This document shows, piece by piece, positions 3,155 through 20,494 of a stretch of DNA of 32,000 bases. How positions within the stretch are numbered: position 1 is the first letter of the stretch; each line of letters starts with the position of its first letter. Both the position numbers and the translations under genes were made by a program. Location: assembly GCA_000025185.1 (NCBI GenBank), contig CP001848.1, positions 360,001-392,000 of the forward strand, written 5' to 3'. The stretch comes from Pirellula staleyi DSM 6068 (GTDB lineage Bacteria; Planctomycetota; Planctomycetia; Pirellulales; Pirellulaceae). The notes under the pieces are model-generated. The model did no database searches. It saw only the letters and a list, made by a program, of their open reading frames with translations, and had not been told where the DNA came from.

Positions 3155-4005
3155 GAGCCAGTTATTGACTTTGTCTGTAGATTTTTGCGAGGAGGATCGT
3201 GAGGAAGGCGAGCCAGTGGAAGTTGGTGAGCGTGACGGTGAGTCTCTCATAATCACGCGCGAGACGGCGGAAGCGACTCAGCCAACCAAACGTGCGCTCA
3301 ACAACCCAGCGGCGTGGCAATAGGACAAAACCTCGCTTGCCCTCGGTATGTTTGACGACTTGTAGTCTTATAGAAGATGCCTTGGCTTGATCAGCTGCGG
3401 AATCAACTGTATAGCCTTGGTCCACATAGGCAATCTCCACGTTGCTGCCCGTCACCTCTTGCACTCTCTGCGAGAGGATGGCGACTTGGTCGCGGTCTTG
3501 CTCATTGGCTGCAGTGATGTAAACCGCCAGCAGATTTCCCAGTGTATCGACGGCAATATTGGCCCTTCTTTTTCTTCGCGCCGTCGTATCCCGCGCGGCC
3601 TCCACTTTCAGGAGTCGATTGCAGCGTTCGAGCATCCATGATCACAGCGGTTGGCTGTTCGTCACGTCCTTCCAAAAGACGCACCATCAGCCTGAGGTCT
3701 TGCGCAATTTCCTCAAAGACTCCCGCTTCGAACCAGCGTCGCATTTGTTGATAGACGGCCCGCCACGGAGGCATTTCATGCGGCAGGAAGTCCCACTGGA
3801 TTCCTGTTTTCACCACGTAGCGCATGGCGTTAAACTGGTCGCGCAGTGAATAGGCGCGCTGCGGCACATCCTCGCGCATGAGGCTCAAATAGGGGAGCAG
3901 GAATTCTCACTACGCATCCGTTACGTCGCTGGGATACGACTTCCCTGTCGTGTGTTTCATCCCCTAACTACAGCAATTGCAAGCAGATAAGTCAATAACA
4001 GGCTC
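3155..4005 (-). mobile_element. IS5-superfamily insertion sequence, copy 1 (851 bp, decayed)
   Basis: Imperfect terminal inverted repeats GAGCC(A/T)GTTATTGACTT lie at 3155-3171 and 3989-4005, each end flanked by TA. The body is near-identical to 19644-20494 and 31529-32000. Confidence 0.9.
3162..3960 (-). pseudogene. IS5-family (DUF4096 + DDE) transposase, inactivated
   Basis: The translation starts MKHTTGKSYPSDVTDA and then hits TAG TGA, where copies 2 and 3 read GAG TGG (EW). It also lacks the 8 nt present in copy 3 (junction 3562/3563), which splits the gene into two frames. The C-terminal part keeps VDTLGNLL, YVDQGY and RRWVVERTFGWLSRFRRLARDYERL. Confidence 0.85.
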
Positions 4006-4200: not shown

Positions 4201-4726
4201 GTTGAAAACCGCAGACAAGGTAAACATGAAACGTGCACCCTAAGCCGTGTCCGTCTAACGACGGGGGTTTCACGGAAAGGGAAACCTTGCCTAAAGCAGC
4301 GAAGGTTACTCCGTCTTCGGTAGCTGAGCGGTTTCGGCAATGACCTTCTGCATTAAGTATTCCGATACGGTGTATCGCTTTAGTTGATTCATAAAGTCGC
4401 TGTGAAACTGTTCCGGGACATGATCGAAGCTCTGCACATCGATGTTGCACCGCTGCCTTGAACCGCCTTGCGCAGTTCGTCGCAGCGCCAGAACGGGCAG
4501 CTATGAAGGTTACCGCAGAGGAACCAGTGACTGAACGGATCAAGCAGCAGATGGATGAAGTGCAGTGCGAAAAGCCGCAACGGGCAGCGGGTTGGGCAAG
4601 GTAGCTCCCCACGCGGCCTCCTTGCAGTCCGTTTTCATCACGGCAACAATGTGCACGCGGTTTGCGGCAATCGGTATTGCCTCCGTTTTCCAGATACGCC
4701 GCTTACCATTCAGATGTGAGTTCAGC

Positions 4727-7147
4727 ATGACGACCGAATGGCTCGCCGATGACGCACACAAGGCATTTCGAGCGTTCCTCACTACGATCAAACCAGACGA
4801 GGACATCAACGAAGCAGCGACGAGGTTGCGGTTCATCGACGATATTCTGATCAAGGTTCTGCAATGGGACAAGAACCATGTTTGGCCAGAATCACATGTC
4901 AAAAACGTCGGCTATATCGACTATGAGTTCAATAAGCCACGCCCCTCCTTGATTCTGGAGGCGAAGAGTGTGGACAAAACCTTTATACTTCCCGGTTACG
5001 AGTATCCCGCGGAGCCGGTTCCATTTAGCCTGATTGCAAGCGAATGCAAGGAGGCCGCCGCAGCGCTTACGCAGTGCCAAAACTATGCTAACAAGCGTGG
5101 TGCCCGCTATTCCGCCATTTCGAACGGCCACCAATGGCTGTTGTCGATGACGTTCGTCCAAAACGAACCCGTCGAAGATCGGCTGGTGTATGTCTTCGAG
5201 TCGTTGGACGCGATCAACAAGAAGTTCAGAGCATTCTTTGAATGCTTCGGGCCTATGGCGATCCGGTCAAACCAACCGAGTATGAAGCTTTTAGACGCTC
5301 GTCGCGCGCCAGCTCCCGCAAAATTCTCCACGACAATCCCTGGCTATCCTGTCGCCGCCGACCGTAATTCCTTGGCACCTTCGGTCGGCGGATTGCTGCA
5401 ACTTATCTGGGAGGCCATTGATGGCGATCAGGACAATGAGCTCTTTCTGCGCAGTTGCTACATTCCCTCGGCACCCTCTTCGGACATGTTGAAAAAGGCT
5501 CACACCTTGCTGTCCCAGCGGGCCACAACTGACGAGCAGCTGGCTGCAGCCGATGTTAAACCAGCGACTCGGAGGTCGGTCCTCGAACATCAGGACCGAT
5601 CAGACCGCGAACAACCAGTAGTGATCCTAGGACGAATTGGACACGGCAAATCCACGTTCCTGAAGTACCTGAGACACATCGAGGCCAAAGACATACTGTC
5701 TAGTAAGTATCTTCAGATTGACCTCAATTTCCTGCGCACCCCCGCAACGGCTGCCGAAGTACCTAATTTTGTAATGAGGCGAGTTCAAGAGCAGCTGAAG
5801 GGGTACGGAATCGAATACGCGGACGATCCTTTCGTTCGGAGGGTTCTGAAACGCGAGTTGAATGACTTCCGGAAGTCACCGCGAGGAGTGCTGTTAAAGG
5901 AAAAGCCAGATGAACTTCGGGAGGCGGAGGTAGACTTCCTTGAAACGTTCACCAACGACGCTGAACGATACATGGCTCTAGTGATGAAGTTTATCCGTCG
6001 ATCGCATCACAAGTCGGTAGCCATTTTCTTCGACAATTTGGACCGCCGCGGTGACGACCTTCAGGAGGCGGCATTCCTGCGGGCCGCTGCGATGGCGAAT
6101 GACTGGGGAGTTCTGGTATTCGTCTGCCTTCGACCGGGGAGCGTCCAACGGTCAAGTGCGGCGGGAGTCTTGGACACCATGGCTCCACGAATGCTGGTAA
6201 TCCCGCAACCTGACATTGCCGTCGTACTCCGGAAACGCTTCCAGTACGCAAGCAAGTATGCAGGACTCAGTCTTCCTTCGGACGCCTACACCCACAATAC
6301 TTTCGGTGCAGACGCCGACAAACAGCTACCAGAGGCGTCTCGCTTCTTCGCCATGTGCGATGATTCCATCCATTCCAATCCGGTGCTTGCGGAACAGTTC
6401 GAAGCCGTATCGAACGGAAACATCCGTAGGGTAATGGAGTATGTCCAGAAAGTGATAACAAGCCGACATCTCGACACGCAAAAGATACTGGATAAGTTGG
6501 CAAAGCCGGACGGCTATACGCTTGCCGATCACGAGACAAACCGAGCATTGATATTTGGTCCATACATACACTTTGACTCACGAGAGTCTCTCTTCACGAA
6601 CCTGTTTGACATCTCGCACGCAGATCCGACCGAGCATTTTTCGCGTGTGTTCCTGCTCGACTACTGCCATCGCCACGCAAATAGCGTGACAAATCACGGC
6701 TACATCCCGGTCACGACGCTCCAAGAGTATATGGCGTCCCTAGGCTACTCAGCCAACCATATAACTGAGTCTTTGTCACTTCTGGTTGAACGCAATTGCC
6801 TCGAAGGACAGGACGAATATCGTGACCAAGAGGAAACGCCCAAGCTCGGAGCGGACGTCCGCATCACGAGCTTGGGCAGTTTCCACATCACTACTCTGGT
6901 GCGGACCCAAGAGTATATGGACGCTATTTCCATCGACACACCGATTCTCGACGAAACAGTGCGTGCCTCGATAAAAGACGTGGAAGACATACGCAGCCGT
7001 CTCAAGCGTGCACGGGTTTTTACAGCATACCTAGCCCGTCAGGCTGAGTATTTCACGGACGCAGACGCTCGCAGGGTATTAGATGACATCTTAACGGCTG
7101 CCGCCAATGATATTACGGACATTGAGGCTGATTTGAAGAAGTCGTAA
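4727..7147 (+). CDS. PD-(D/E)xK (type I restriction HsdR-N-like) nuclease domain fused to a P-loop NTPase and a C-terminal helical domain
   Basis: N-terminus: ..INEAATRLRFIDDILIKVLQW..VGYIDYEF..PSLILEAKS..LTQCQNYA..YSAISNGHQW. This is the D..ExK core plus the QxxxY / NG..W pattern typical of HSDR_N-type nuclease domains. Walker A GRIGHGKST is at nt 5630-5656 and the Walker-B-like VAIFFDNLD follows. I prefer the ATG at 4727 over the GTG at 4565, because the upstream 54 codons overlap decayed sequence. Confidence 0.75.
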   Translation: MTTEWLADDAHKAFRAFLTTIKPDEDINEAATRLRFIDDILIKVLQWDKNHVWPESHVKNVGYIDYEFNKPRPSLILEAKSVDKTFILPGYEYPAEPVPFSLIASECKEAAAALTQCQNYANKRGARYSAISNGHQWLLSMTFVQNEPVEDRLVYVFESLDAINKKFRAFFECFGPMAIRSNQPSMKLLDARRAPAPAKFSTTIPGYPVAADRNSLAPSVGGLLQLIWEAIDGDQDNELFLRSCYIPSAPSSDMLKKAHTLLSQRATTDEQLAAADVKPATRRSVLEHQDRSDREQPVVILGRIGHGKSTFLKYLRHIEAKDILSSKYLQIDLNFLRTPATAAEVPNFVMRRVQEQLKGYGIEYADDPFVRRVLKRELNDFRKSPRGVLLKEKPDELREAEVDFLETFTNDAERYMALVMKFIRRSHHKSVAIFFDNLDRRGDDLQEAAFLRAAAMANDWGVLVFVCLRPGSVQRSSAAGVLDTMAPRMLVIPQPDIAVVLRKRFQYASKYAGLSLPSDAYTHNTFGADADKQLPEASRFFAMCDDSIHSNPVLAEQFEAVSNGNIRRVMEYVQKVITSRHLDTQKILDKLAKPDGYTLADHETNRALIFGPYIHFDSRESLFTNLFDISHADPTEHFSRVFLLDYCHRHANSVTNHGYIPVTTLQEYMASLGYSANHITESLSLLVERNCLEGQDEYRDQEETPKLGADVRITSLGSFHITTLVRTQEYMDAISIDTPILDETVRASIKDVEDIRSRLKRARVFTAYLARQAEYFTDADARRVLDDILTAAANDITDIEADLKKS

Positions 7148-7149
7148 TA

Positions 7150-8145
7150 CGGACTCTTCCTAACTTGACTTCGCACGGGCCCGTTGTGCGTCTCGGCCAT
7201 CCGACGACGCCTCCCATAGAAAGTTCTTGACGAGGGCAATCGTCCGCGATAGGTTCGGCTCACGCATGGGCAATTCTGCCCGGTGAAGTATGGAGAGCCG
7301 GGCTGGAATCGGCTAGACACTGATGGGCCTATCTGGATAGAAGAACCGAACACGCTAAACGGTTTAGTTTCGTCGTCGAAGCGGACCTTCTCAAGAAAGA
7401 AGTAAAGCCCGATTGGACGGGGTTCCATGCGGATAACGTCGGCAATCGATCGGCTTTTTAGCCTCCGGCGAGTAGCTTCCGAGTTATAGCCTCTACCCCC
7501 CACGATAGCCTGCGGTCGGCGATGTCGCCGATGCATGCTGAGTTCGCAATTCGCAATCAGCTTTTCGAACTCGGTCGACTCGTGACTTTGACCAGCGGTC
7601 GCCGTGACACCGAGCACAATTCCATTGCCATCGGTGAGCAAGTGCAGTTTGGTAAAATAGCCTCCGCGCGAGTAGCCAATCGCATTTAAATCGTCGTTCT
7701 CTGGGCTTTTTGACAGCATTCCCGAAGCACATCGATGGGCCCGCACGACACTGCCGTCGATGCACCAGCGCTGTCGGCTGATCTTGCCTCGGGTGTCGAG
7801 CAACTTCAGTGGTACGCGATTGATCGAGTCCCATAATCCACTGCAGGTCCAGCGCCGGAAGCGGTTGTAAGCTGTCTGCCACTTGCCTAGTTCCGCTGGC
7901 ATATCCCGCCACGGGGCACCTGTTTTGAGAACCCACAGGATGGCATTGATGGTCGTGCGATGATCAGCCCAGGGGCGTCCGGGATGGCCTGTTTTCGCCT
8001 TGGGCGAGCAGAGGTCGTATTGCGTTAAACTCTCGATCCGTGAGAAGATGTCGCAGCATTTGGCATCCCTGTTTGAGTCACCGTGGTAAGTAACTCAGGC
8101 AGGTTGCCAAATGCCCTTTTCAAAGGTCAATTAAGAGACAGCGCC
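7150..8145 (-). mobile_element. third IS5-superfamily element (DUF4096 + DDE transposase), frameshifted and decayed
   Basis: On the minus strand the start at 8058 gives MLRHLLTDREFNAIRPLL. A frameshift follows, then ..GRPWADHRTTINAILWVLKTGAPWRDMPAELGKWQTAYNRFRRW..DGSVVRAH..GYSRGGYFTKLHLLTDGNG..TAGQSHES..GGRGYNS. The C-terminal third has lost similarity. A terminal sequence CTGTCTCTTAATTGACC (complement of 8125-8141) has a degenerate partner GACTCTTCCTAACTTGAC at ~7152-7169. Ends are approximate. Confidence 0.6.
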
Positions 8146-8187: not shown

Positions 8188-9849
8188 ATGCCTGACTCAA
8201 ATCGATCATTTTCATCACGGCACTTTCCGTATCGGAAACACGATCGCAATATCGCAGCTGATGCGGCAACGGCAGGGCTGGAATCTTCCGACGCTCCCCA
8301 GGTTCCAGCTCTAGTACCGAGGACTGTCTATCGTTTCGTTCTTGGGCAGGATCTGCGTCCAATCGCAATGAACGCAAACGACATTGGTGTATGGCTCAGA
8401 GATCCGTTTGGAAAGTTTGTTATCTCGCAAGGCCGGTTCCCTCTGACACTGCGGAAGCTACTGGAACAATTTGATAAAGCGGAGAGTCGACTAGACGAGC
8501 AGCAAAATTTTGTAGTTGCTGATGGTGGGCAGATTTTGTGGAACGCAGAGACGGAGTTCGTGGAGCGGAGCATGCGGTTCGCAATCACTCGCTTTAACGC
8601 TCAAGGCGACAGCGTATTGATCAGCACTGCGGTCCCTTTCGATTCAGAGAGCCAGTTTTTACAGCTTCTTGCATGGGACGCAAGTAATGAAGTTTTCAAC
8701 TACTACGAGCGCCGTAACGGCACTTGGATTTGGGCGGGCAACTCATATCACGCGTTGCGAGAACCCACGAGAGGTAAAGGACCGTTCGATAGCCACGTTA
8801 ACGGTTCGTTGGTAATGAAGGAGTTGAAATTTCCCTGGATGCACTGGCACAGTATGGCATCGATCATTTCGGATGACGTATTGGCCCCAAGCGATCTATT
8901 GCGAACCGATCCGATCTGGCGATCAAAGCTTGGTGCCGATGACTTCGAAATAGCGGTGGTAAGGCCTGGAATACGTAAATGGACAGAGGCCAGAACGAAA
9001 AAATTCGTCAGGGATCACTCGTCCGAAAATGCTTCCAATGCACGCGAAATACTCCGCCATCTGTTCGAAACAACCACCGTCAACTTAATCGCCTCGGGTG
9101 AACAAAGTCGCTCGATTACCGACCAGTCGTCCGTGAAGCTTCCGATCACGTTCTTTCTGAATTCTGACGTTCTGTTCGATTTGCTCGAACTTGAGCCCGA
9201 AATTGTGGTCCCGTCGGTTGCAGGGGAGTTTTATCGCGAAAGCCTTCGTACATTTGAATTCAAGCTACAGACGAATAACTTCGAGCAACCCGGCGATACG
9301 CATTTCGCTTTCATCGTTCCCGAAGCCGCCTTTGAGGACAATCTGGTAGTTGCCGAGTTGTTGAAGCAATCTGTGGTCTCAGCACGATTCGTTGCCTGCG
9401 TATTGATGGTTGATTTTGCAAATCCCATCTCCTCTTCAAGTCGCGAACTTTTACTCAAGTATATTCCTGACCGAATGGCTATACGTGATGGCGTCCTCGA
9501 CCTAGAGGCACAGTTCATAGCAAATGTTGAGGCCGCTATCAGTGAAACCGATGAATCGGATCCTGCATCGCCGGAACAGCAGTTCTTAAGCCATTGGAAC
9601 TTGGGAGACGCCTGGAAGCAGGCATTTGAGTCTCGAGTCGAAGCTTATTTTCAAGCAATCCAGCAACGTCTAGGCACTCAGCATGGGTACGATGATTACA
9701 TCAGGCTAGCCGAATCACGTCGACGCGAGTTTCGAAGGCGTCCCCTTTCTGAGTTCGATCTCACCCTTCCAGTCACCAACATCCCAGCCGATGCACCTCT
9801 GCTTCAAATGTTTGAAGATGGACGTGTCGGAATCAAGCAAGGAACCTAG
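8188..9849 (+). CDS. hypothetical protein (553 aa), first gene of the six-gene operon
   Basis: A long uninterrupted ORF with no competing ORF. It stops 3 nt before the next start. I recognise no catalytic or targeting motif. A distinctive segment is FLQLLAWDASNEVFNYYERRNGTWIWAGNSYHALREPTRGKGPFDSHVNGSLVMKELKFPWMHWHS. The start is uncertain; the alternative is the ATG at 8367 (MNANDIG..). Confidence 0.7.
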   Translation: MPDSNRSFSSRHFPYRKHDRNIAADAATAGLESSDAPQVPALVPRTVYRFVLGQDLRPIAMNANDIGVWLRDPFGKFVISQGRFPLTLRKLLEQFDKAESRLDEQQNFVVADGGQILWNAETEFVERSMRFAITRFNAQGDSVLISTAVPFDSESQFLQLLAWDASNEVFNYYERRNGTWIWAGNSYHALREPTRGKGPFDSHVNGSLVMKELKFPWMHWHSMASIISDDVLAPSDLLRTDPIWRSKLGADDFEIAVVRPGIRKWTEARTKKFVRDHSSENASNAREILRHLFETTTVNLIASGEQSRSITDQSSVKLPITFFLNSDVLFDLLELEPEIVVPSVAGEFYRESLRTFEFKLQTNNFEQPGDTHFAFIVPEAAFEDNLVVAELLKQSVVSARFVACVLMVDFANPISSSSRELLLKYIPDRMAIRDGVLDLEAQFIANVEAAISETDESDPASPEQQFLSHWNLGDAWKQAFESRVEAYFQAIQQRLGTQHGYDDYIRLAESRRREFRRRPLSEFDLTLPVTNIPADAPLLQMFEDGRVGIKQGT

Positions 9850-9852
9850 AAC

Positions 9853-10992
9853 ATGGCACTCTCCCATTTTGACCCGCCGGCATTCCTGGATGACTTCACT
9901 CAGGAACAAAAGGACGCTTGGAGCGAATGGATTTCCCAACAGATCGATGCCGCGATCGCTGGTGATCCTAACGGCTTGGAGTTCGACGCGCCTCGCGCCC
10001 AGTTCTTCAATGCGACGAAAGTAGACTTTGCCGCCGATATGGCAACGCTGGATATCGAATGGACCGCCTTTCCTCGAAACGTTCAGATCAGTTCGATCAG
10101 CGATCGCCAACGCTGGCGTCGTGCGGAAAGCAGTAGGGATCTGCAGGACGAGTACTGCGAATGGAGCGTTGAACGAGATCCGAACACGGAAAAGATTACG
10201 CGTGTCACCTTCACTTGCGAAGGCCCAGAGTACTGGCAGTTTCTCGCTGCTACATCGCCACAGAAAGTGCTTGAACTATACAAGCAGTTCGTTAGCCAGT
10301 CAGTTCAGTTAAGCGACCTGTTTTCTACGAACGGACGCTACAATCCCCGCAACGTTTGGAATAATTCATCGACTAATGGCGCGATGCATTTGATCCAACC
10401 AAACAATACGCTTGGAGCCGAGATTGAGCTTGCTGGTGGATCGAGCGTTGTACGATCGATCAATGGTCAATTGTTAACTGGCGAACGCGAATTGATCGAT
10501 TGCGGCAAGTACGGTGGCCGCGAACGGCACAGCGACCCACGGATTGGCTCCGAAGTAAACAGCCTAACGCGGCAAAAGGCTGACGTAACGTTGGCCAATC
10601 CGGTTGGCCTGTATTTTTCAAAGCTGATTACCGCTGGCTGGGAAGTTCCCAATGGTGAGGATGCTCAGAATTTCTGGAAGTATGTTCGAGGCACGGCAAG
10701 TCATCCAGTCCGCGCCGTCTTTGAAGTGCCATCTGATCGTGGTTTCGTCGTGGGAGATATCAAGATTGATGGCCGTGATATCGAGTTCGGAGCGCAGATT
10801 GCGGACAAGATCAAAATAAAGCTCATCGGCGTAGCTCACAAGTTCGGTCAAAACGCCGTAGCCCCGATGACTGGCTGTCGGCGCGTAAGGCAGCAAGTGT
10901 CGGAATCGATCGAGGCCGTTGTTCTTCAGAAAAAGCCAACCGTATCCAGCATACTGAGTCTACGGGCGGTGACTGCGCCTGCGCGGCATTAG
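9853..10992 (+). CDS. hypothetical protein (379 aa), second gene of the operon
   Basis: The ORF begins 3 nt after the previous stop. I recognise no motif. Distinctive segments are LQDEYCEWSVERDPNTEKITRVTFTCEGPEYWQFL and NGAMHLIQPNNTLGAEIELAGG. There is no signal peptide or TM segment. Confidence 0.7.
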   Translation: MALSHFDPPAFLDDFTQEQKDAWSEWISQQIDAAIAGDPNGLEFDAPRAQFFNATKVDFAADMATLDIEWTAFPRNVQISSISDRQRWRRAESSRDLQDEYCEWSVERDPNTEKITRVTFTCEGPEYWQFLAATSPQKVLELYKQFVSQSVQLSDLFSTNGRYNPRNVWNNSSTNGAMHLIQPNNTLGAEIELAGGSSVVRSINGQLLTGERELIDCGKYGGRERHSDPRIGSEVNSLTRQKADVTLANPVGLYFSKLITAGWEVPNGEDAQNFWKYVRGTASHPVRAVFEVPSDRGFVVGDIKIDGRDIEFGAQIADKIKIKLIGVAHKFGQNAVAPMTGCRRVRQQVSESIEAVVLQKKPTVSSILSLRAVTAPARH

Positions 10993-11031
10993 TAATGAAA
11001 GCTCTATACCCAAACCAAACGGAGAATCCCT

Positions 11032-12195
11032 ATGGCCTATTTGACTCAGGATCAGATTCACGAGATTCATTCTCAGGCAGTGAACCGAACACCGGGACTA
11101 CTTGACGCGTGGAAACAAATGTTGATTGGTCTTCCAATCGCATATATGAGCACACTTCCGAACATTGATGGAAACAAGAACCTTGGATTGCTTGCCCAGT
11201 TGAGCACAATGAATGAGGTTGATGTCATCAAAGGTGGAGTAGTTCCTCTTGAAGTTTGGTTAAACAACGCTGCGTACTTTTCTGAGCTCTTTCCTGATAG
11301 CCAAAAACTGTACCGCGACTACGCGCGAGTCATATTGGAGAAGCGTGCTATTACGAAAAGAAACGCTACGAGCTCTTTTGATCAAACGGTGAATGCACCA
11401 TCACTGAAAGGCATGTCCGAAGTTAAGGAACGCATAATCTTCATCAATGAGATGGTTCCGTACGGTTTTGCACAAGGGGCTGTGCGAACGGGGCAGTCGG
11501 TCGCTCGCCTCATCGTTCCAAGGTTCGATGGGAAGCAACCCCGGAAACTACCCTTTACCGACGAGCAGATAAAGTACTTTGGCACGGGCTGGCTATTAGG
11601 GACTCGTCACATTGTTACGAATCATCATGTCATCAATGCAAGAGACGCTGGCGAAGCAGATGCGATTTCTGAGGACTTCAACCTTCAAGGTATTAAGACG
11701 ACCGTGCAGTTTGATTACAACCAACGGAACGCGGCCGGTGACCCGCGAAGTGTTAAGCAGGTCTCCGGGTACAACAAAGAACTTGATTATGCTGTTCTTG
11801 AACTTGAGGCTCCATCAGGGCGCGAGCCGCTTCCCGTTTTTGGAGGGCAATTTGTCCTGCCAGCTCAGTCACTTTTTCCGGTGAACTTGATCCAGCATCC
11901 AGGAGGTGAGCCAAAGAAGCTAGGTATTCGCAGCAATCTTGTGGCGGCCGTAAACGAGGTGAATCTTGCCTATTTCACAGATACCGAACCTGGTTCCTCG
12001 GGTTCTCCTGTTTGCTCGGACGATTGGTATGTACTCGCATTGCACAAAGCTTCATCTGCGTCCTATGGGGAGTTCGAGTACCAAGGCAAGCAAACGGCTT
12101 GGGTAAATCATGGAACGCGAATTGACGTTATCCTCGCAGACTTAAAGCAAAACCACTCGACTTTGTGGAATCTTATCGGCGCTAATGTGGTTTAG
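11032..12195 (+). CDS. trypsin-fold (S1-type) serine protease with N-terminal ~95-aa helical adaptor-like domain
   Basis: The catalytic triad is intact: His in GTRHIVTNHHV (H199), Asp in ELDYAVLEL (D252), Ser in TDTEPGSSGSPV (S323, nt ~11998). A GGAG lies 8 nt upstream of the ATG. N-terminal aa 4-97 are homologous to the C-terminus of the next protein. Confidence 0.9.
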   Translation: MAYLTQDQIHEIHSQAVNRTPGLLDAWKQMLIGLPIAYMSTLPNIDGNKNLGLLAQLSTMNEVDVIKGGVVPLEVWLNNAAYFSELFPDSQKLYRDYARVILEKRAITKRNATSSFDQTVNAPSLKGMSEVKERIIFINEMVPYGFAQGAVRTGQSVARLIVPRFDGKQPRKLPFTDEQIKYFGTGWLLGTRHIVTNHHVINARDAGEADAISEDFNLQGIKTTVQFDYNQRNAAGDPRSVKQVSGYNKELDYAVLELEAPSGREPLPVFGGQFVLPAQSLFPVNLIQHPGGEPKKLGIRSNLVAAVNEVNLAYFTDTEPGSSGSPVCSDDWYVLALHKASSASYGEFEYQGKQTAWVNHGTRIDVILADLKQNHSTLWNLIGANVV

Positions 12196-12206
12196 GAGGT
12201 TCTGCT

Positions 12207-13412
12207 GTGGCCATTATTATCCCGGAGATACGAGAGCTGGAATCAATTGTTCACCAGATGCGGCCGGCCTTGCGTGTTTCGAAAAATAGATTTGAACGCT
12301 CGCCAATCGGCTGGGAAGAACTGGACGCACATCGAGAATCGATCGAACGAGCCCTCCAGGCAACTGGGCGACTCGAATCGGACGATCCGTCGGTGCCCTA
12401 TTTTGGTACAGCATTTCTCGTTGGTGACGGAATAGCCCTAACCACACGTCATGTTGTGGAGTTGTTTGCGAATGGGCATGGCGAAACAGATCTAAACATC
12501 AAACGCCACCGCAAAGTATGGATTAATTTCAATGCCGAAACAGAAGGCGACACTAGCGAAGTTGCCTATGTGACCGGCATTGAATTCATTCATCCTTACT
12601 GGGATGTTGCGGCGATTCGGGTAGAAACATCGCGGGGTGGACTTGTACTTGAGTCCGCTCCTTCCACCGCGAATACTAATATAACGGTAATCGGTTACCC
12701 AGCTTTGGACATGCGGTCTGACTTAGACATCCAGCTAAGGATCTTTGAATCCGTATTCAACGTCAAACGCTTGCTCCCAGGAAGACTAGGTGGCGAAGAA
12801 TTGATTGAGTCCTACGGCAACAACGTGCTGGCGCTAACCCATGATGCTTCCACTTTAGGCGGTACTGCTGGCGCTCCGGTTATTGACATACGATCTGGCC
12901 ATGTCGTGGGAATTAACTTTGCAGGCGTATATCTGAAAGCTAACTACGCGGTCCCGTCATGGAAATTGATGCAAGATTCACGAGTTAGACGGCATCTTGG
13001 CTTTCTAGAGCCACCATGGATGAACCTTTGGGAAAAGCCTATTCAACCACTTAACTTGAAAGAGAATCCGGCGTGGACCGTAATTTCTGGGCAGGCAATT
13101 AGGAATCATGAGGCCTACCTTACCCACGATCAAGTCTTGGATCTTTGCCGACTTTTGGTAGGTGCCTTTCCTACAGATGAAAGCATTGCATCGCTGTTTC
13201 TGGGCATTGCTCCAGAAATCGTCGCCTCGCTACCTAGCGGTAACAATCCGAAGGAGAAATTGCTAAATCGACTTCAAGCGTTAAATAACATCGGTCGCAT
13301 CATAGGTGGTCAGTCACCGCTGCAATTGATATTGAAAACGGCAGCATTGCTAAGGGAGTCGTTTCCAGACGAACAGATCTTGCAGCAGTACCTAGCAATT
13401 GTAAGTAAATAA
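12207..13412 (+). CDS. trypsin-fold pseudoprotease (nucleophile Ser replaced by Ala) with C-terminal adaptor-like domain
   Basis: GTG start with a strong AGGAGG 8 nt upstream. His is retained (ALTTRHVVE, H82) and Asp is retained (YWDVAAIRVE, D133). The GxSGxP motif reads GGTAGAP, with Ala221 encoded by GCT at 12867-12869. C-terminal aa 305-401 match the N-terminal module of the preceding protease. Confidence 0.88.
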   Translation: MAIIIPEIRELESIVHQMRPALRVSKNRFERSPIGWEELDAHRESIERALQATGRLESDDPSVPYFGTAFLVGDGIALTTRHVVELFANGHGETDLNIKRHRKVWINFNAETEGDTSEVAYVTGIEFIHPYWDVAAIRVETSRGGLVLESAPSTANTNITVIGYPALDMRSDLDIQLRIFESVFNVKRLLPGRLGGEELIESYGNNVLALTHDASTLGGTAGAPVIDIRSGHVVGINFAGVYLKANYAVPSWKLMQDSRVRRHLGFLEPPWMNLWEKPIQPLNLKENPAWTVISGQAIRNHEAYLTHDQVLDLCRLLVGAFPTDESIASLFLGIAPEIVASLPSGNNPKEKLLNRLQALNNIGRIIGGQSPLQLILKTAALLRESFPDEQILQQYLAIVSK

Positions 13413-13478
13413 TCATTGTCACTCCTAGTCAACCAAGATAGCTCATTTACAAGACTCAGTCACGGAATCTGAAGGTTT

Positions 13479-15398
13479 ATGCCAAGACTCTTGCAACAAA
13501 AACATCGGCTTCACAAGATACTTATCGAATGCAAACTAGGGGATTCGGTTGATTTGCTCGTTTCATCAATCAACTCAAGCGTTCGTGCCCAATTGCCAAA
13601 TGAAGATATCCCAGCAAAGCGATTGCTGGGGATAATTGATTTCCTATGCGAGTATGATCTGCCAAAAAACAGCGCAGACCCCCTGGTTCAATTTCTGCAA
13701 CGAGTCGTTCACCTCTTGGATCAGTATCCAGACCAATGTGAAGAGGTCAAAGTGTTTTTATTGAGCCTTTCGACAAGAGATACTGAACTCAATAATACGC
13801 AACACGATTCGTCAACGGACAACGCACCCGCTGGGCATCATCCTGCTATTGGCGTTCTCGTCATCGCTACAACTCATGTGGAGCTCGACGCAATGAAGTC
13901 GAGTCTCAATGTTTCGGACCGCCTGTCGATTGGCACGTTGGAGTATTGGCACGGCACAGTCGGGGGGCTTGAAATTGCAGTCACGCAAAGTGTTCCGCCT
14001 GAGGGAATTGTGATTCTTCAGGAAACGCTTCAACCTTCTGCAGTAATCTATGTATGCCCAGTAATTTGTCTAAAGAAGCAACCTAAAGACCAAGCACATA
14101 CTATCCTTGCAAGTACTTTGCATGAGAATCCTAAGCAGGCCTCTCGGACTCGTTCGTTGCGACTGTGTGACGCAATGACATCGTACATGGCAAGAACTTT
14201 GCCGTCTGGGAGATACGCAAATGTAGTTGAGATTCTTGATATACCGCAATGGGAACAACTAAACCCCGCGGCGCTACAGCATGTAAAATTGTCGTTTGTT
14301 GTGGCCTCAGACAATTCGATTCTAAGTTTACTGAAGGAAATCGACTCACCTGTTGCTTTGCTTGGCTCGGTGGTATGGAGGCATGAGCCCCGATCTGAAA
14401 AAATACCAACACTGCAGGAAATCTTGGGCTCTGAAGCCCACCATATAGCGTCTGAAGCATCTGGCAGTATTTTGCATGAGATATTATCCACCGAGAGCTG
14501 TCCGTATAAGAACGCCGAACGGGTGCTATCGGTCGACAGTTCACATCCCGGAGCATTAGACGTTTGGATACGATCACCAAGCGACGCTGATGACGTCAAG
14601 CCGTTTGTGAATCGAGCTCAATTCCGGACTGATCTTGTTAGACTACTTCGTCCTGGCAATCCGCGAACTATGGTAGTCAGCGGTGAGGAGGGCTCGGGGA
14701 AATCATTTTTATTTGAGTTCCTTATGCACCTTCACATCACGAACGTTGTGCGGGCAAATATCATCCCAATACAGTTGCCGAAGGAGTCACGTCCTCCTGA
14801 ATGGACTTGGAGAAAGCTGATGCAACTCTTGTGTGAAGGGCTTAAAATTCAAAGATTGGCGATAGATGAGTTCCACGACCCAAGCGAGTTTGTGTCCCGA
14901 TATCTTGTGAGAACGATAAGCCCAAGCAGCAGCAAAAGTTTCGAGAGCATGCCGGCAAGACATCAAGCAAACATATTTGTCTTCGACGGTTTTGCGAGGC
15001 AAGGCTTTAGCCCTGATATTTATGACACCCTTCTCGCGCTGGAAGATGCTATTGCGAGTTGTGCCCTTCCGAACTTTCGATGTTTAGTTCTTGGTTGCAA
15101 TGCACATACTTTGTTGCGGGACAGCCCGTCGCGAATTGTGCGTACTTACAAGGTTGACGATGTTCCTGAGGCCGCAGATATAGATGGATTTATTGCGCAC
15201 TTTTCTCGTCAACATAACGTTGCACCAAGCCCAGAAGCTATACAGACTTTTCGCGAGACAATATCTTTTAACGTTGCTGCTGTAGATGAACGGCTCGGAG
15301 CTGCCGAGCGGCACATCCGAATGCTTAAGGTGAATTCAATTTTTCTGAGGGCATCACAGCTGCTCCTCGCTCAGTCAAGTACAATTGGAGGTGTATAG
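13479..15398 (+). CDS. P-loop NTPase with N-terminal adaptor-like domain and a possible degenerate nucleoside-phosphorylase-like middle domain
   Basis: Walker A GEEGSGKS is at nt 14682-14705 and the Walker-B-like NIFVFDGF follows. N-terminal aa ~5-95 share the LP..LL..PL..L..(Y/F)PDxQ pattern with both proteases. The segment AIGVLVIATTHVELDAMKSSL..EYWHGTVGGLEIAVTQS resembles the start of PNP_UDP-type phosphorylase folds, but the later glycine-rich motifs are not evident. Confidence 0.75.
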   Translation: MPRLLQQKHRLHKILIECKLGDSVDLLVSSINSSVRAQLPNEDIPAKRLLGIIDFLCEYDLPKNSADPLVQFLQRVVHLLDQYPDQCEEVKVFLLSLSTRDTELNNTQHDSSTDNAPAGHHPAIGVLVIATTHVELDAMKSSLNVSDRLSIGTLEYWHGTVGGLEIAVTQSVPPEGIVILQETLQPSAVIYVCPVICLKKQPKDQAHTILASTLHENPKQASRTRSLRLCDAMTSYMARTLPSGRYANVVEILDIPQWEQLNPAALQHVKLSFVVASDNSILSLLKEIDSPVALLGSVVWRHEPRSEKIPTLQEILGSEAHHIASEASGSILHEILSTESCPYKNAERVLSVDSSHPGALDVWIRSPSDADDVKPFVNRAQFRTDLVRLLRPGNPRTMVVSGEEGSGKSFLFEFLMHLHITNVVRANIIPIQLPKESRPPEWTWRKLMQLLCEGLKIQRLAIDEFHDPSEFVSRYLVRTISPSSSKSFESMPARHQANIFVFDGFARQGFSPDIYDTLLALEDAIASCALPNFRCLVLGCNAHTLLRDSPSRIVRTYKVDDVPEAADIDGFIAHFSRQHNVAPSPEAIQTFRETISFNVAAVDERLGAAERHIRMLKVNSIFLRASQLLLAQSSTIGGV

Positions 15399-15400
15399 TG

Positions 15401-18376
15401 ATGGCTAAAGTGGATCTGACTGTTGAACTTTTCGCCGACTCTGGCCGCCCTCGATCTCGTGGTCATTTTTTCGAGGCAGCTTCTTTACTTACAAGCTTTC
15501 TACCAGCGCAGCTTCGCGCAGCCGATGGCAGCTTAATCGATCGTCAATCGTTAGATATTCTAGCGCGTAATTGTGATACGACCGGTTCGGAATGGATACT
15601 TGACGATGCTGTTCGTCGCGACGAAATCCATGCCCTTGAGTCTCTAGAAGTGCCCATATCGATTTGGAAAAACAACGCGGAGAATTGTCCGGATGACCCG
15701 GTTCAAAAGATGCTTCAGCAGGTCGTGCGAGAATCTGTGAAAGTGGACGAATTGGATTCTACTCAGTTATCGTCTCTACTAAGAGTCCTTTCTTGGTTTG
15801 GTACCTCACTCATCAGCAAATCGCTTCGGCTGCCAAGTATTGATGAAGTCCGTGCAGAGTTCGGATATAAGACTTGGTGTGATCGTTTGACGCGCTACCG
15901 CACACCAGACTTCTTAGGTCGTGAACAAGAAATGGACGAACTCTATCGATTTATGGTTAGCCCACTTTCTTTTTCGGCAACTGTTTGGGGGGTTGGTGGG
16001 GTAGGTAAAACAGCCTTGCTCTCAAATTTTGTCCTTGAACACTGCTTGAATTCTGAAGCTCGAAGGCCATTTGCTTGGTTTGACTTTAACCGTAGTGACT
16101 TACTTAATGCGGAGTCACCAAATTCACTTCTTCTCGAGGCCGCTTCGCAACTGTCGCAACAGAGAATTGTCTCTGTAGGTACGCAATCGGAAATTGAAGA
16201 TTTCTGCAGAGACATGATCGATGGCCCAATCATTAGCCGCCAGCTACTCACGTCCCAGCAAATCATACGCTTTGGCAAAATTCTTCAGAGTTCTGGTACA
16301 TCAGGTATAGAGTATATATGGGTGCTTGATAGCTTGGAAGAACTTCTCGAAACTGCTCCAGGTTTCATTGACTATATCACAGCGTATCTCGAGGAGCTTC
16401 GCGAAATCATACCTCAGCTGCGGGTTTTCTTCGTTGGTCGTAGCCAGTACTTCGGAGATACGTCGGTTCGACGTGAGCTGCACCTCCAATGTCTTGAGCT
16501 TAGTCTTGCAAGGGAGTTCCTGGAAAGAGGCGGTGTTCCAGAAGCAGAATCTTTATTCATCGCGAATGCATGCGGAAAACACCCACTGCGATTATCGCTA
16601 GCGGCAAGCATTTATCGCCAAGCGATGAAGGATCGCCAAAGTGGTTCTCCATTTGAGCAATTGAGATTCCTGTCAACTACTTTACCGAAAGGCTCAGAAA
16701 AAACATTGTTTCTTCGGTTTCTTGAACATCTTCACGACGATGATATCAAGAGACTTGTAGCGCCGGGCTTCTTGGTGCGGAGAATAACACCACTGGTTAT
16801 CGAGAAGATACTAGCTGAGCCGTGTGGTCTTGAGGTTAGAAGTGCGGTTGAAGCGACCGCCGTTTTTCAAAAGCTGATTAGAGAAGTCTCACTAATCGAG
16901 TCTGTCGACGACGAGACTGCGGTGCTGCGGCGAGACGTGCGCAAGGAATTGTTGCCTCTTATTCGCAGTGCATTCAATCACGAAGCCAATGCCATCCATA
17001 CATCCGCTATAGAATTCTACCGTTTTCGTCGAAATGACGAATCAAGAGCAGAGGAAGTTTACCACCGTTTAATGATTGGAACTGATGCCAGAACATTAGA
17101 TCGATGCTGGCGACCATCGCTAGCTGAAAGACTGGTTGGTAGCATTGACGAAATGCCGTTTCGGTCGCAAGTTTACCTTGCTAGGAAAACGGGAAGAGGT
17201 ACTACGGTGCCAACGGATTATTTCTCTGATCGAGCGGACAATTTCGACTGGGAATGGAGAGTCGCAAGTCGTGCAAGATCATTGCTCGATCACGATGAAC
17301 CTGAGAAAGCGATCGCACTAGTGCGCGAGCGAGATTTTCGTAGCCCTACCAGTCCACTTTACGTCATTGAGTCTAGAGCTTTGCGACGACTAGGAAAACT
17401 GGCGGAGGGGCGTCGAATACTCGAGAATGCGGCCAACAAACTAGCTTCGCTTACCAATTTTGGAACGAATGCGGATAGAGGGCATGCTATCGAGTTGTTG
17501 CTTAGTTTCTTTTGGATAGAACTCGATTGTTCGGAATGCCTGTCGGCCCGCGAGACATTGGACGATCTTTGCAAGTTGATTGGCTTTAAGACCGATCTTA
17601 TCGAGGTTTGCAATAACGAAAAGCCAGTTTTGCATTTAGAAATATTGCTCCGTTCGATTGCCTTGAGTAAGAAATGTCCTCAGCAGTCGTCCGTGGTTGA
17701 TCGGGACCTCGCTTACCGCAAAGCGCACGAAATACTTAGCGATGAGGAGATATTGGAAGATCATGATTTTGAGGATTCGCCGAAGATGTTCCGTCGCTTG
17801 GCAGCGGAAGTATGTTGGAATGATGTAAAAGTTGTTTCCCGTGTCGTCAGGAATTCCGGTATCGGCACTCCCTACCCGTTGGCGTGTGAGGTTCTTGGTG
17901 AAGAGATTGCTAGGTGGTCGTCGGGGCGATTTGAATTGGAAACCCTCGGACCAATACCAGTCGATTGCAACAGGCCGAGTGTTTGGAAACATTGGTTTAT
18001 GCGAGCGTCTTCTTCTTCGATAAGCGATTCATTTTCACGATTAATTGAATCTAGAGAGCCTCCGCGAAAAGTCATGGAAGCTGTTCGCGACTTGCTCCTG
18101 TTGTCTGATGAAGGGCCTAGAACCGAAGGAGATATAGAATACCTAAAAGATATCGCAATGGCGCAAAACGAGCGTTTACAACTAAGAAAACACCTTCGCC
18201 ACTATGGACACTCACCTGAGAAGATTAGGCACCTTTTTAGTTCTGGCTTTGGTTTGAGTTCCTATGATGTAATCTCGAAAAACGAAATCGATGCTCCTGT
18301 ATTGATCCGCGAGATTGCCTCATGGAGCGTTCGGTTTGGCCTTGCCAACCGTTTGCTCGATTCAATCAATGAATGA
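15401..18376 (+). CDS. STAND-type (NACHT/NB-ARC-like) NTPase with C-terminal helical (TPR-like) repeats
   Basis: FLGREQEMDELYRF..VWGVGGVGKTALLSNF gives Walker A at nt 15989-16012, followed by Walker B YIWVLDSLEELLE. The C-terminal ~450 aa are helix-rich, for example AIEFYRFRRNDESRAEEVYHRLM and EKAIALVRERD..LGKLAEGRRILENAANKL. The start is the ATG at 15401 (or the GTG at 15398), abutting the previous stop at 15396-15398, with GGAGG at 15387-15391. Confidence 0.88.
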   Translation: MAKVDLTVELFADSGRPRSRGHFFEAASLLTSFLPAQLRAADGSLIDRQSLDILARNCDTTGSEWILDDAVRRDEIHALESLEVPISIWKNNAENCPDDPVQKMLQQVVRESVKVDELDSTQLSSLLRVLSWFGTSLISKSLRLPSIDEVRAEFGYKTWCDRLTRYRTPDFLGREQEMDELYRFMVSPLSFSATVWGVGGVGKTALLSNFVLEHCLNSEARRPFAWFDFNRSDLLNAESPNSLLLEAASQLSQQRIVSVGTQSEIEDFCRDMIDGPIISRQLLTSQQIIRFGKILQSSGTSGIEYIWVLDSLEELLETAPGFIDYITAYLEELREIIPQLRVFFVGRSQYFGDTSVRRELHLQCLELSLAREFLERGGVPEAESLFIANACGKHPLRLSLAASIYRQAMKDRQSGSPFEQLRFLSTTLPKGSEKTLFLRFLEHLHDDDIKRLVAPGFLVRRITPLVIEKILAEPCGLEVRSAVEATAVFQKLIREVSLIESVDDETAVLRRDVRKELLPLIRSAFNHEANAIHTSAIEFYRFRRNDESRAEEVYHRLMIGTDARTLDRCWRPSLAERLVGSIDEMPFRSQVYLARKTGRGTTVPTDYFSDRADNFDWEWRVASRARSLLDHDEPEKAIALVRERDFRSPTSPLYVIESRALRRLGKLAEGRRILENAANKLASLTNFGTNADRGHAIELLLSFFWIELDCSECLSARETLDDLCKLIGFKTDLIEVCNNEKPVLHLEILLRSIALSKKCPQQSSVVDRDLAYRKAHEILSDEEILEDHDFEDSPKMFRRLAAEVCWNDVKVVSRVVRNSGIGTPYPLACEVLGEEIARWSSGRFELETLGPIPVDCNRPSVWKHWFMRASSSSISDSFSRLIESREPPRKVMEAVRDLLLLSDEGPRTEGDIEYLKDIAMAQNERLQLRKHLRHYGHSPEKIRHLFSSGFGLSSYDVISKNEIDAPVLIREIASWSVRFGLANRLLDSINE

Positions 18377-18538: not shown

Positions 18539-19643
18539 TATGCGAGTTGCACCATTTTTGTACTCGTCCTTACTTTTGTCAGTCTCCCCGATCCGTTCGC
18601 GACGTGTGCTTGTGCTTGTGCTTGTGCTTGTGCTTGTGCTTGTGCGTTGGCCCAGTCATTGCATCTCGAACAAGGCTGGACTGCAGAGGAACGCGAGCGT
18701 TTTTACTTTACCGCACAGGGCTCTCAGTTGATTCCCTTTAAGTGGTTTCTTGAGCTTGAGCAGGTCGAAAGCGAAAAAAGCCCTTTCGCGACGTTCAGAA
18801 CATGCAACGATATGGATTCTTGCCAGCCCCTCGTGGCAAGCTAGATCCTGAAGGACTTCCCGTTGGCTTCGTTCGCGATGGCATCAATCCGGTGGCGAAT
18901 GAAGTTGCCGGGATTGAGTCAGTCCAACAAGCAGTGATCGCCGCTGCGACTCGGTTCGGGATCAAAAGAGCCTATTTGGGTTCGGAGTTTGACGAAAAAC
19001 TTTACCCGAATGAGCAGCAGGCATGGTTCGGTCTTACCTGTGCCGCATGCCATACGCACGAGATGGCATTCAACGGAAAGACTTTGCGGATCGATGGCGG
19101 GGCGTCACAAGCAGATGCCGAGTCCTTCCTGCGTGATCTGGGTGTTGCTTTGCAAGCGACTGTGGATAGTCCGGAAAAACTAAAACGATTCGCGAATGCA
19201 GTAGGACAAGGTGGACGTGACCTCGCCGAGTTCAAGAGCGAGGTCGGACAGATTGCAGACGCTGTCAACCGGCTAGTCGCACGCAACAAGTCCAAGCACC
19301 CTTACGGTTTCGCTCGCTTAGATGCCTTTGGAGCAATGCTCAACGCGGTTTGCGAGACCGCACTAAACATCCCAGAGAATCACCAGGAATCCAAGCGCCC
19401 GTCAGTTATCCCACGCTTTGGAACACGCCGCAGATGTCGTATGTGCAATTGAACGCATCTGCTGCGAACGCAGAAGGACGTAACGTAGGTGAGGTCCTCG
19501 GCGTCTTTGGAACGTACCCGCTCGAACCAGGGGAAAAGCAGTTTGACTCGACAGTTCGACTTCGAAATCTTGTTGTGCTTGAGCATGAACTGATTGCGAA
19601 ACTTCGCGCACCTGACTGGCCAGAAGACTTGTTTGGCAGACTA
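18539..19643 (+). pseudogene. haem-c (CXXCH) di-haem-peroxidase-like protein gene, frameshifted at least twice and 3'-truncated by an IS
   Basis: The homologous reading path jumps frames. It runs ..GWTAEERERFYFTAQGSQLIPFKWFLELEQ..SPFATFR in frame 2, then MQRYGFLPAPRGKLDPEGLPVGFVRDG..WFGLTCAACHTHEM (CXXCH at 19039-19053) in frame 1, then ..APVSYPTLWNTPQMSYVQLNASA..APDWPEDLFGR in frame 0. The last part runs straight into the IS end at 19644. A possible signal peptide MRVAPFLYSSLLLSVSP at 18539 lies in yet another frame. The family assignment rests on motif recall only. Confidence 0.6.
18606..18641. repeat. hexanucleotide microsatellite (GTGCTT)x6, followed by the variant GTGCGT
   Basis: Read directly from the sequence: gtgctt gtgctt gtgctt gtgctt gtgctt gtgctt gtgcgt. 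It encodes (VL)6, (CL)6 or (CA)6 depending on frame. Confidence 0.95.
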
Positions 19644-20494
19644 GAGCCTGTTATTGACTTATCTGCTTGCAATTGCTGTAGTTAGGGGATGAAACACACG
19701 ACAGGGAAGTCGTATCCCAGCGACGTAACGGATGCGGAGTGGGAATTCCTGCTCCCTTACTTAAGCCTCATGCGCGAGGATGTGCCGCAGCGTTCCTATT
19801 CACTGCGCGACCAGTTTAACGCCATGCGCTACGTGGTGAAAACAGGAATCCAGTGGGACTTCCTGCCGCATGAAATGCCTCCGTGGCGGGCCGTCTATCA
19901 ACAAATGCGACGCTGGTTCGAAGCGGGAGTCTTTGAGGAAATTGCGCAAGACCTCAGGCTGATGGTGCGTCTTTTGGAAGGACGTGACGAACAGCCAACC
20001 GCTGTGATCATGGATGCGCGGACACTCCAATCGACGCCTGAAAGTGGTGGCCGCGCGGGATACGACGGTGCGAAGAAAAAGAAGGGCCAATATTGCCGTC
20101 GATACACTGGGAAATCTGCTGGCGGTTTACATCACTGCAGCCAATGAGCAAGACCGCGACCAAGTCGCCATCCTCTCGCAGAGAGTGCAAGAGGTGACGG
20201 GCAGCAACGTGGAGATAGCGTACGTCGATCAAGGCTATACGGGCGCCGCAGCAGCCGAGCAGGCTGAAGCATCCTCGATAAGATTACAAGTTATAAAACA
20301 TACCGAGACCAAGCGAGGCTTTGTCCTATTGCCACGCCGCTGGGTTGTTGAGCGCACCTTTGGTTGGCTGAGTCGCTTCCGCCGTCTCGCGCGTGATTAT
20401 GAGAGACTCACCGTCACGCTCACCAACTTCCACTGGCTCGCCTTCCTCACCATACTCCTCGCAAAAATCTACAGACAAAGTCAATAACTGGCTC
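19644..20494 (+). mobile_element. IS5-superfamily insertion sequence, copy 2 (851 bp)
   Basis: Terminal IRs GAGCCTGTTATTGACTT (19644-19660) and AAGTCAATAACTGGCTC (20478-20494) are flanked by TA on both sides. Same element as 3155-4005 and 31529 onward. Confidence 0.92.
19689..20487 (+). pseudogene. IS5-family transposase split into two frames by an 8-nt deletion (orfA 19689-20147, orfB-frame 20014-20487)
   Basis: orfA has the DUF4096-type N-terminus (YPSDVTDAEWEFLLPYL..KTGIQWDFLPHEMPPWRAVYQQMRRW). The orfB frame has the DDE part (ANIAVDTLGNLL..YVDQGY..RRWVVERTFGWLSRFRRLARDYERL). Compared with copy 3, 8 nt are missing at 20086/20087, so the two halves sit in frames 0 and +1. Confidence 0.85.

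Follow-up and report, generated by a model that had tools for sequence, protein, structure and literature searches.

A conserved, apparently enzyme-like protein pair (A and the DUF8225 protein B) heads a protease and NTPase operon of Pirellula staleyi and is repeatedly coupled to intracellular proteases

What is the role of the two large genes that precede a set of proteases and NTPases in Pirellula staleyi DSM 6068? The genes, here called A and B, are located in the 32,000-nt stretch of DNA that we analyzed as a whole (the window; CP001848.1, 360,001 to 392,000, all positions below being those of the window). They had been singled out in an initial annotation, made from the sequence alone, as two large proteins that could be latent toxins or substrates of the protease encoded next to them. 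Both open reading frames (ORFs) are as described there, with the same coordinates, 3 nt between A and B, and 39 nt between B and the next ORF, which begins at 11032 (Table 1). From the comparison of their homologs, A and B, the latter a DUF8225 protein, apparently form a single conserved module of two subunits, enzyme-like in character and repeatedly coupled to intracellular proteases. The single likeliest reading of the pair, which we put forward tentatively, is that of a protease-activated pro-effector of this operon.

The pair is found in a wide range of bacteria. Word-index searches returned 673 relatives of A and 1267 of B, in families annotated only as "hypothetical", while a profile of B retrieved 1434 clusters (50% identity) among 1.84 billion representatives. 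Scanning one genome per species, we detected B in 492 species, which include members of Streptomyces, Kitasatospora, Pseudonocardia, Bradyrhizobium, Sphingomonas, the Planctomycetota (Kuenenia too), the Acidobacteriota, and the myxobacteria, as well as one Flavobacterium. The 80 genome loci used for the comparison of neighborhoods are the best 80 of these 492 by similarity, with Streptomyces over-represented; ORF calls at the loci are heuristic, and the Pfam counts of neighbors were aggregated per batch. In 82/83 loci A directly precedes B, both genes being on the same strand, and the exception (L037) is a short contig in which no A was detected upstream of B. Single-chain A-B fusions are present in L002, L026, P0241, P0246, P0253, and P0304. 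Because of this constant arrangement and of the single-polypeptide fusions, we can consider from the genomic evidence that A and B function together as one unit. A divergent subfamily, B2, is found in myxobacteria, filamentous cyanobacteria, and planctomycetes, and also here a homolog of A precedes B2 in the 4/4 loci inspected (E values of 1e-104 to 1e-125). The possibility that A and B are paralogs was ruled out, as hhalign gave a probability of 0.6%.

Searches of A and B against Pfam-A, NCBIfam, and PADLOC (E <= 0.1) assigned no family and gave a single sub-threshold chance match. The hidden Markov models of known anti-phage systems in PADLOC-DB v2 produced 0 families for either protein at E <= 0.1, Pfam showed neither an effector-associated domain (EAD) nor any other domain in them at the same threshold, and we found no P-loop/NTPase or nucleic-acid-binding signature in the pair. 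The initial annotation had described both proteins as motif-less. A has no family in the three databases, but B does not lack one entirely, since its homologs carry PF26676 (DUF8225). This assignment is indirect, through homologs that are 89 to 91% identical to B over 97 to 99% of its length and for which PF26676 is precomputed; the model is too recent for the Pfam copy that we used, hence the lack of a direct match of B there. PF26676 is present on all 240 B relatives among the matches listed, and we found no paper mentioning DUF8225 or PF26676 in the literature searched. The initial annotation had also reported neither signal peptide nor transmembrane segment, in agreement with a maximum Kyte-Doolittle value (19-residue window) of 1.62 for A and 0.87 for B, and a secreted or membrane-bound location of the canonical pair was ruled out on these grounds.

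Both proteins show an unusually high degree of conservation, with a mean column identity across phyla of 66% for B and 56% for A. The stretches quoted in the initial annotation as conserved-looking turned out to be the blocks that vary least in two large families. Judged by this conservation, A and B are real, strongly constrained genes rather than chance ORFs. The residues F200, D201, S202, H203, N205, G206, K211, E212, W217, and W220 of A are invariant across 41 diverse homologs. Across 39 homologs of B, little or no variation is found in the blocks Q98-W104, F120-W128, and H179-E190, which are also mostly kept across about 150 representatives of the 1434-cluster superfamily. Over these representatives, W70, P74, E103, E123, N170, H179, N185, and P250 never vary, and E100, Y101, W104, Y127, N167, R225, S227, and D228 are kept in at least 138 of the roughly 140 to 148 representatives available per column (R225, S227, and D228 in 146/147). 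C102, inside the QDEYCEW motif, is Leu in 33/141 representatives. As a whole, this set of residues resembles a polar site for catalysis or ligand binding in which no cysteine is essential. The C-terminal tail of B after a conserved CRR is variable, and so is a low-confidence linker (residues about 17 to 40) that follows the N-terminal peptide of A. This peptide, F-P-T-R-x-Y-P-Y-R, is a candidate propeptide or docking motif. The public gene call of A starts at an internal Met and gives a protein of 493 amino acids (aa), and we preferred the 553-aa start because the peptide, found in the longer ORF, is common to 34/41 homologs, which supports the longer reading.

The AlphaFold2 models of both proteins are confident, with a predicted local distance difference test score (pLDDT) of 88.7 and a predicted template modeling score (pTM) of 0.86 for B, and values of 83.4 and 0.84 for A. 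The combination of structure prediction and Foldseek, recommended in the initial annotation as a check, gave no PDB match for either protein, the best E value being 1.9 with B and 1.5 with A. Nothing below E = 0.6 was found with Foldseek for A and B against PDB or for B against BFVD, and profile searches of the A and B alignments against PDB sequences returned 0 matches at E <= 10. To judge from these models, both folds are apparently new. None of the family, profile, or Foldseek searches pointed to a housekeeping enzyme, the alternative that the initial annotation had set against its own proposal. The pLDDT of the A model is below 50 at residues 1 to 5 and 16 to 37. The best-conserved loop of A (residues 196 to 224) is the least confidently modeled part of the fold, with low confidence at residues 212 to 224, which suggests that it may be ordered only against B or a ligand. 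Several weak Foldseek matches of A were to NTF2/SnoaL-like folds (E values of 3 to 6), and we mention them as a hint only.

A lack of proteases beside the homologs would speak against the proposal of the initial annotation, and it is not what we found. In a census of the families S1, S8, M4, M10, and M12, from which ORFs matching A or B were excluded, a protease is adjacent to the pair (<=300 bp, same strand) in 14/83 loci and within 5 kb in 30/83. These proteases make up 48 of 878 neighborhood genes (5.5%), around ten-fold above the genome background, which is an estimate from the general peptidase content of bacteria and not from matched control genes. The composition of the neighborhoods is clearly non-random, with many degradative enzymes among the immediate same-strand neighbors. 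Downstream, Trypsin_2 was the most frequent (5/33), followed by S8 (4) and PLD (3), with Endonuclease_NS, Endonuclease I, astacin, and MBL also present; upstream, S8 (5/34) was accompanied by S41, M4, and Lipase_3-S8. There is no universally conserved third gene beside A-B, and the neighborhoods have at least 10 distinct architectures, among them M4 followed by A and B (L002 and L083), A and B followed by one further gene and M10 (L084), S8-S41 followed by A and a B-PLD fusion (L059 and L066), and Lipase_3-S8 followed by A and B (L001 and L004). MBL genes follow B in Bradyrhizobium loci. B is also fused directly to hydrolytic domains, specifically to trypsin, EEP, and Endonuclease_NS in L006, to PLD in L059, L066, and L072, and to S8 in P0243 and P0344, while P0244 is an A-B-PLD chain. 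The linked trypsins belong to one clade across distant taxa, in which protease-1 of the window is about 30% identical to the trypsins of L078, L080, L042, and the L006 fusion. A second such clade is made up of the S8 enzymes linked to the pair (L032, L014, L057, L001, and L004). No signal peptide was found on the trypsins and S8 enzymes of these clades.

The closest non-identical relatives are L003, L004, L084, and L085, Kuenenia- and Pirellulaceae-type loci. There, A-B is flanked by two further unannotated genes, of ~370 aa upstream and ~350 aa downstream (71% identity between L003 and L004), that are absent from the window. An M10 metallopeptidase then follows in L003, L084, and L085.

Within the window, B occupies the position of an effector gene, just ahead of an EAD5-trypsin gene and on the same strand, and the proteases are followed by two P-loop/STAND-type NTPases, a protease-sensor coupling that has analogs in two other planctomycete-type loci, L001 and L006. 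Protease-1 is predicted to be active from its intact triad. The nucleophile motif of protease-2 is GTAGAP instead of GSSGSP, and because of this replacement of Ser by Ala it has probably lost catalytic activity, as a pseudo-protease that might serve protease-1 as an adaptor or regulator. Promoter and terminator scans were uninformative, with matches not above the shuffled expectation; the gap that separates B from protease-1 contains no convincing terminator, and no Rfam family (riboswitch or RNA leader) was found within the window.

Table 1. Position of the A-B pair, its conserved elements, and the genes downstream of it in the window.
Feature	Position	Strand	Description
ORF A	8188..9849	+	553 aa, ATG start; partner subunit of the pair, apparently new fold by Foldseek
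Conserved N-terminal peptide of A (F8-R16, F-P-T-R-x-Y-P-Y-R)	8209..8235	+	Alignment of 41 homologs
Most conserved block of A (G196-S222, GKGPFDSHVNGSLVMKELKFPWMHWHS)	8773..8853	+	41 diverse homologs
ORF B	9853..10992	+	379 aa, ATG start; DUF8225 (PF26676) protein, enzyme-like conservation, apparently new fold by Foldseek
B motifs QDEYCEW (Q98-W104) and FTCEGPEYW (F120-W128)	10144..10236	+	Homolog and superfamily alignments
B motifs HLIQxNNTLxAE (H179-E190) and RxSDPxIG (R225-G232)	10387..10548	+	Homolog and superfamily alignments
Protease-1, EAD5 + trypsin-like	11032..12195	+	EAD5 3.8e-43, Trypsin_2 6.3e-17; intact His/Asp/Ser triad
Protease-2, trypsin-like domain + C-terminal EAD5	12207..13412	+	EAD5 8.8e-14; His and Asp kept
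NTPase-1, P-loop	13479..15398	+	Weak AAA_22/NACHT matches; weak N-terminal EAD5-like region
NTPase-2, large STAND-type (AAA_16), 992 aa	15398..18376	+	Long helical C-terminal region
RoxA-like di-heme cytochrome c, 5' remnant	18540..19645	+	Frameshifted, truncated; conserved downstream flank of A-B in the lineage

The comparison with L001, a close relative in which A-B is followed by an S8 protease and two NTPases, points to an exchange of the protease/NTPase block at a fixed position. The DNA of both loci is 86% identical over A-B (8209-10892), and the identity reaches 93% in the first part of the RoxA-like gene (18653-19645), while the intervening 7.7 kb (window 10893-18652 versus L001 11041-17217) have no DNA similarity. 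The protease clans differ (two trypsins in the window versus one S8 in L001), and NTPase-2 has a full-length homolog in L001 with only 28% identity. In L083, a paralogous locus in the assembly of L001, the order is M4, A, B, and RoxA-like, with no NTPases. The GC content of the protease/NTPase block is 0.47 to 0.49, versus 0.51 for A-B. Since conserved flanks enclose a block without DNA similarity, and since B directly precedes the RoxA-like gene in L083, the block behaves as an exchangeable, fast-diverging cassette that would be kept at one position beside a constrained A-B. The conserved pair and RoxA flank next to a swapped block form the pattern that would be expected of a constrained effector next to diversifying sensors. 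A more distant replicate is L006, in which A and the B-trypsin-nuclease fusion are followed by an EAD1-trypsin, an EAD1 protein, and an EAD1-STAND.

The RoxA-like gene itself (18540-20500) is decayed in the window, with a frameshift near 18780 in an A-run, overlapping ORF fragments after it, and similarity to L001 that stops at 19645. Its intact relatives in L001 and L083 have 988 to 989 aa, each with a signal peptide. The window copy is either a pseudogene or an assembly error. At 18605-18645, in the part of this gene that codes for the signal peptide, a hexanucleotide is repeated perfectly in tandem, (TGTGCT) x 6.8; as the unit has 6 nt, a change in copy number would be frame-neutral.

The pair heads a single predicted operon (8188-18376), which also includes protease-1, the pseudo-protease, and the two STAND-type NTPases. 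If A-B is the pro-effector, the fast-evolving NTPases would sense an invader or stress signal and oligomerize, after which the trypsin-like protease would be recruited and activated through EAD5-EAD5 contacts. According to Kaur, Burroughs, Iyer, and Aravind (2020, PMC7159879), homotypic contacts of EADs bring effectors to a core NTPase, and the presence of EAD5 on both proteases and, weakly, on NTPase-1 fits a recruitment of this kind, in which A and B are the only members of the operon left without a role. The protease would then cleave A and/or B, with the N-terminal FxxRxxPYR peptide and disordered linker of A and the variable C-terminal tail of B after CRR as candidate sites, and the freed A-B heterodimer would exert a harmful catalytic activity leading to cell arrest or death. 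That A-B acts downstream of the protease, is cleaved, and is toxic is something that we only infer. We consider the pro-effector reading the likeliest because of the diversity of the linked proteases, the replicated STAND contexts, the pattern of constrained effector and diversifying sensors, and the possibly removable elements in both proteins.

Several observations weigh against it, however. In 49/83 loci (59%), mostly from Streptomyces and Kitasatospora, there is no protease of the census within 10 kb, and therefore the pair must be able to work without a dedicated neighboring protease. NTPases beside A-B are the exception and not the rule, with most loci lacking them, and even in the window the N terminus of NTPase-1 matches the EAD5 model only below the cut-off (E = 0.026, 14.8 bits against 27), with no significant BLASTP match to the EAD5 of protease-1. 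The nuclease, PLD, and lipase domains fused to B or to the protease mean that other effectors are present, and B behaves like a core that carries effectors; effector domains on the C terminus of B would be expected of a core or sensor and not of a substrate. In the B2 subfamily (L086-L089, and P0494), the A partners from myxobacteria, cyanobacteria, and planctomycetes begin with signal peptides of the Sec or lipoprotein type, and a twin-arginine (Tat) signal is present on one B2 protein, which would be odd for an intracellular death effector. On account of these signals, part of the superfamily is predicted to be extracytoplasmic, unlike the canonical pair. Finally, LodA-like quinoprotein oxidases and LodB flavoproteins occur at 10/83 loci from five phyla, often in the A-B operon or divergently transcribed, and again at the B2 locus L088, and heme peroxidases of three families are associated with the pair. 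RoxA-like di-heme cytochromes are found near A-B in the window, L001, L083, L003, and L088, DyP is fused to B-like domains, one animal-type peroxidase lies beside the pair, and GMC and galactose-oxidase-like oxidases are also close to it. The LodA/LodB and peroxidase links are left unexplained by the pro-toxin model. Latent toxins or substrates, as suggested in the initial annotation, are thus in line with the protease adjacency, the protease clades, the fusions, the STAND replicates, and the gene order, and at odds with the protease-free loci, the oxidase and peroxidase partners, and the effector domains of B.

In a rival reading, A-B would be an enzyme of two subunits that works on its own, perhaps in oxidative or degradative metabolism, and that has no mechanistic tie to the NTPases, and the protease/STAND block would be a separate defense cassette inserted and exchanged at a B-RoxA hotspot. 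Such an enzyme would account for the order found in L083, the lower GC of the cassette and its exchange between conserved flanks, the many loci free of NTPases and nearby proteases, and the exported sister subfamily, and a conservation at the level of metabolic enzymes together with the phylum-spanning LodA/LodB adjacency and the GMC, galactose-oxidase-like, RoxA-like, and DyP partners also speaks for it. We nevertheless regard it as somewhat less likely than the pro-effector. The window and L001 cassettes are alike in architecture (a protease and two NTPases, with NTPase-2 aligning over its full length), and because these architectures are homologous, the cassette seems to be kept by kind at that position rather than being random cargo. 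EAD-tagged trypsins and a STAND NTPase come again after A-B in the distant L006, protease-1 of the window falls inside the trypsin clade associated with A-B, and it is separated from B by a gap of only 39 nt with no convincing terminator. The fusions of B to trypsin, S8, nucleases, and PLD, all without export signals, are also difficult to reconcile with an independent enzyme. The same fusions speak for another model, less probable and in our opinion unlikely, in which a conflict system would have A-B as its constant upstream core, in the role of sensor or switch, and proteases, nucleases, PLD, and lipases as its variable effectors, the protease/STAND block having been added in this locus. The pair is indeed constant beside highly variable hydrolytic neighbors, and it is the C terminus of B that carries PLD, trypsin-EEP-NucA, or S8. 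In known systems, sensor or core proteins occur as fusions with a protease or effector (PMC12799240). Unrelated immune cores are known to capture protease-nuclease and protease-MBL pairs, which recalls the MBL genes after B in Bradyrhizobium, and L006 matches the NucA-peptidase system of PMC7159879, with A-B placed in front. Against a role as core or sensor, the very high conservation and active-site-like residues would be unusual for a sensor of variable invaders, and A-B shows neither an NTPase nor a nucleic-acid-binding signature. Recognizable effectors are lacking near the pair in most loci, the window, L001, and L006 already have STAND proteins as dedicated sensors, and the sister subfamily is exported.

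The oxidase partners allow a further, highly speculative proposal that we consider very improbable. A-B could be a new-fold, two-subunit "executioner" shared by complex bacteria, with an oxidative output, making or consuming reactive species together with LodA-type H2O2-producing oxidases and the three unrelated heme-peroxidase families, and it would be deployed jointly with proteases, nucleases, PLD, and lipases. If true, it would be a bacterial analog of the oxidative burst, gated in this locus by an NLR-like STAND/protease cascade. A relationship of A or B with the LodA/GoxA-type cysteine tryptophylquinone (CTQ) quinoproteins was ruled out, with hhalign values of <1% against the neighboring LodA-like proteins. 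The possibility that B is a new Cys-Trp quinone enzyme through its QDEYCEW motif was likewise discarded, given the frequent Leu at C102 and the same hhalign result (<1%). Among the peroxidase fusions, P0388 (1132 aa) combines a DyP peroxidase and a B-like domain, and its N terminus (MLRCSRLASRRLLSGRASRAL...) resembles a eukaryotic organellar targeting peptide, so the DUF8225 superfamily may extend into eukaryotes as a peroxidase fusion.

Other regions of the window also contain genes of possible mobile origin. An 860-aa large P-loop NTPase (4565-7147, + strand), Sll1717-like/AAA_16, whose N-terminal region weakly matches the PADLOC candidate PDC-M54B, lies between remnants of IS4/IS5-type DDE transposases (3162-3635 and 7039-7902, both on the - strand), and it may be a separate defense gene in a mobile or degraded island. 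Downstream, weak matches to DUF932 (22828-23724, E = 5e-4) and to the reverse transcriptase RVT_1 (26957-28036, E = 0.15), both on the + strand, coincide with a patchy GC content (0.45 to 0.61) from 21 to 28 kb, and this region may be derived from mobile elements.

Only recently has it been recognized that the activation of latent death effectors by proteases is a dominant principle in the immunity of prokaryotes. The catalog of effectors is so far short and made of small or single proteins, from which A-B differs as a widespread, extremely conserved two-subunit pair. Its links extend to at least five families of proteases, nucleases, PLD, lipase, EAD/STAND cassettes, and, unexpectedly, LodA oxidases and heme peroxidases. 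Whether effector, core, or independent enzyme, A-B is a well-defined and experimentally tractable pair.

Among known families and systems, Pfam DUF8225 (PF26676) covers the domain carried by the B homologs; it is an entry without an assigned function, and its partner A has no family in Pfam-A, NCBIfam, or PADLOC. The bacterial gasdermin-protease operons, invoked by analogy in the initial annotation, share the logic of a latent executioner beside an activating protease and sensor repeats or NTPases. The analogy does not extend to the protein itself, as A-B shows no gasdermin-like fold or membrane-active feature, has no family or structural match (Pfam, PADLOC, and Foldseek), and consists of two subunits with enzyme-like invariant polar residues. 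The EAD-coupled NTPase systems, as presented in PMC7159879, have in common with the window the EAD5 on its proteases (weakly on the NTPase) and a constant component beside variable effectors. Likewise, they combine trypsin, S8, and NucA in single polypeptides (as in L006 and L059), they have the same taxonomic range (actinomycetes, planctomycetes, myxobacteria, and cyanobacteria), and they include a NucA-peptidase system, to which the part of L006 downstream of A-B corresponds, and the two-gene EACC1 "constant component" system. No pair like A-B was found by term searches of this paper or in its NucA-peptidase section, and A and B differ from these systems in having no EAD and in being widespread outside NTPase contexts. 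By analogy, the closest functional analog of A-B is the protease-licensed effector module (Evans et al., 10.1101/2025.11.14.688446; Tuck et al., Science 2025, PMC12799240). In these modules, as recent experiments have shown, the genes just upstream of sensor-coupled proteases code for latent death effectors that are freed by site-specific cleavage, such as MBL pro-nucleases, alpha/beta-hydrolases, Pepco/Trypco, and EACC1, and one effector family can be paired with trypsin, caspase, or S8 partners (10.1101/2025.11.14.688446; PMC12799240). Unlike them, A-B is a large pair (553 and 379 aa) that resembles none of the ten families surveyed there, and over half of its loci are without a protease nearby. 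B can itself carry protease or effector domains, and the cleavage and toxicity of A-B are putative. Yet the gene order is the same (candidate effector, protease, and STAND-type sensor), and, as in those modules, A-B is linked to several unrelated classes of proteases and conserved beside diversifying sensors.

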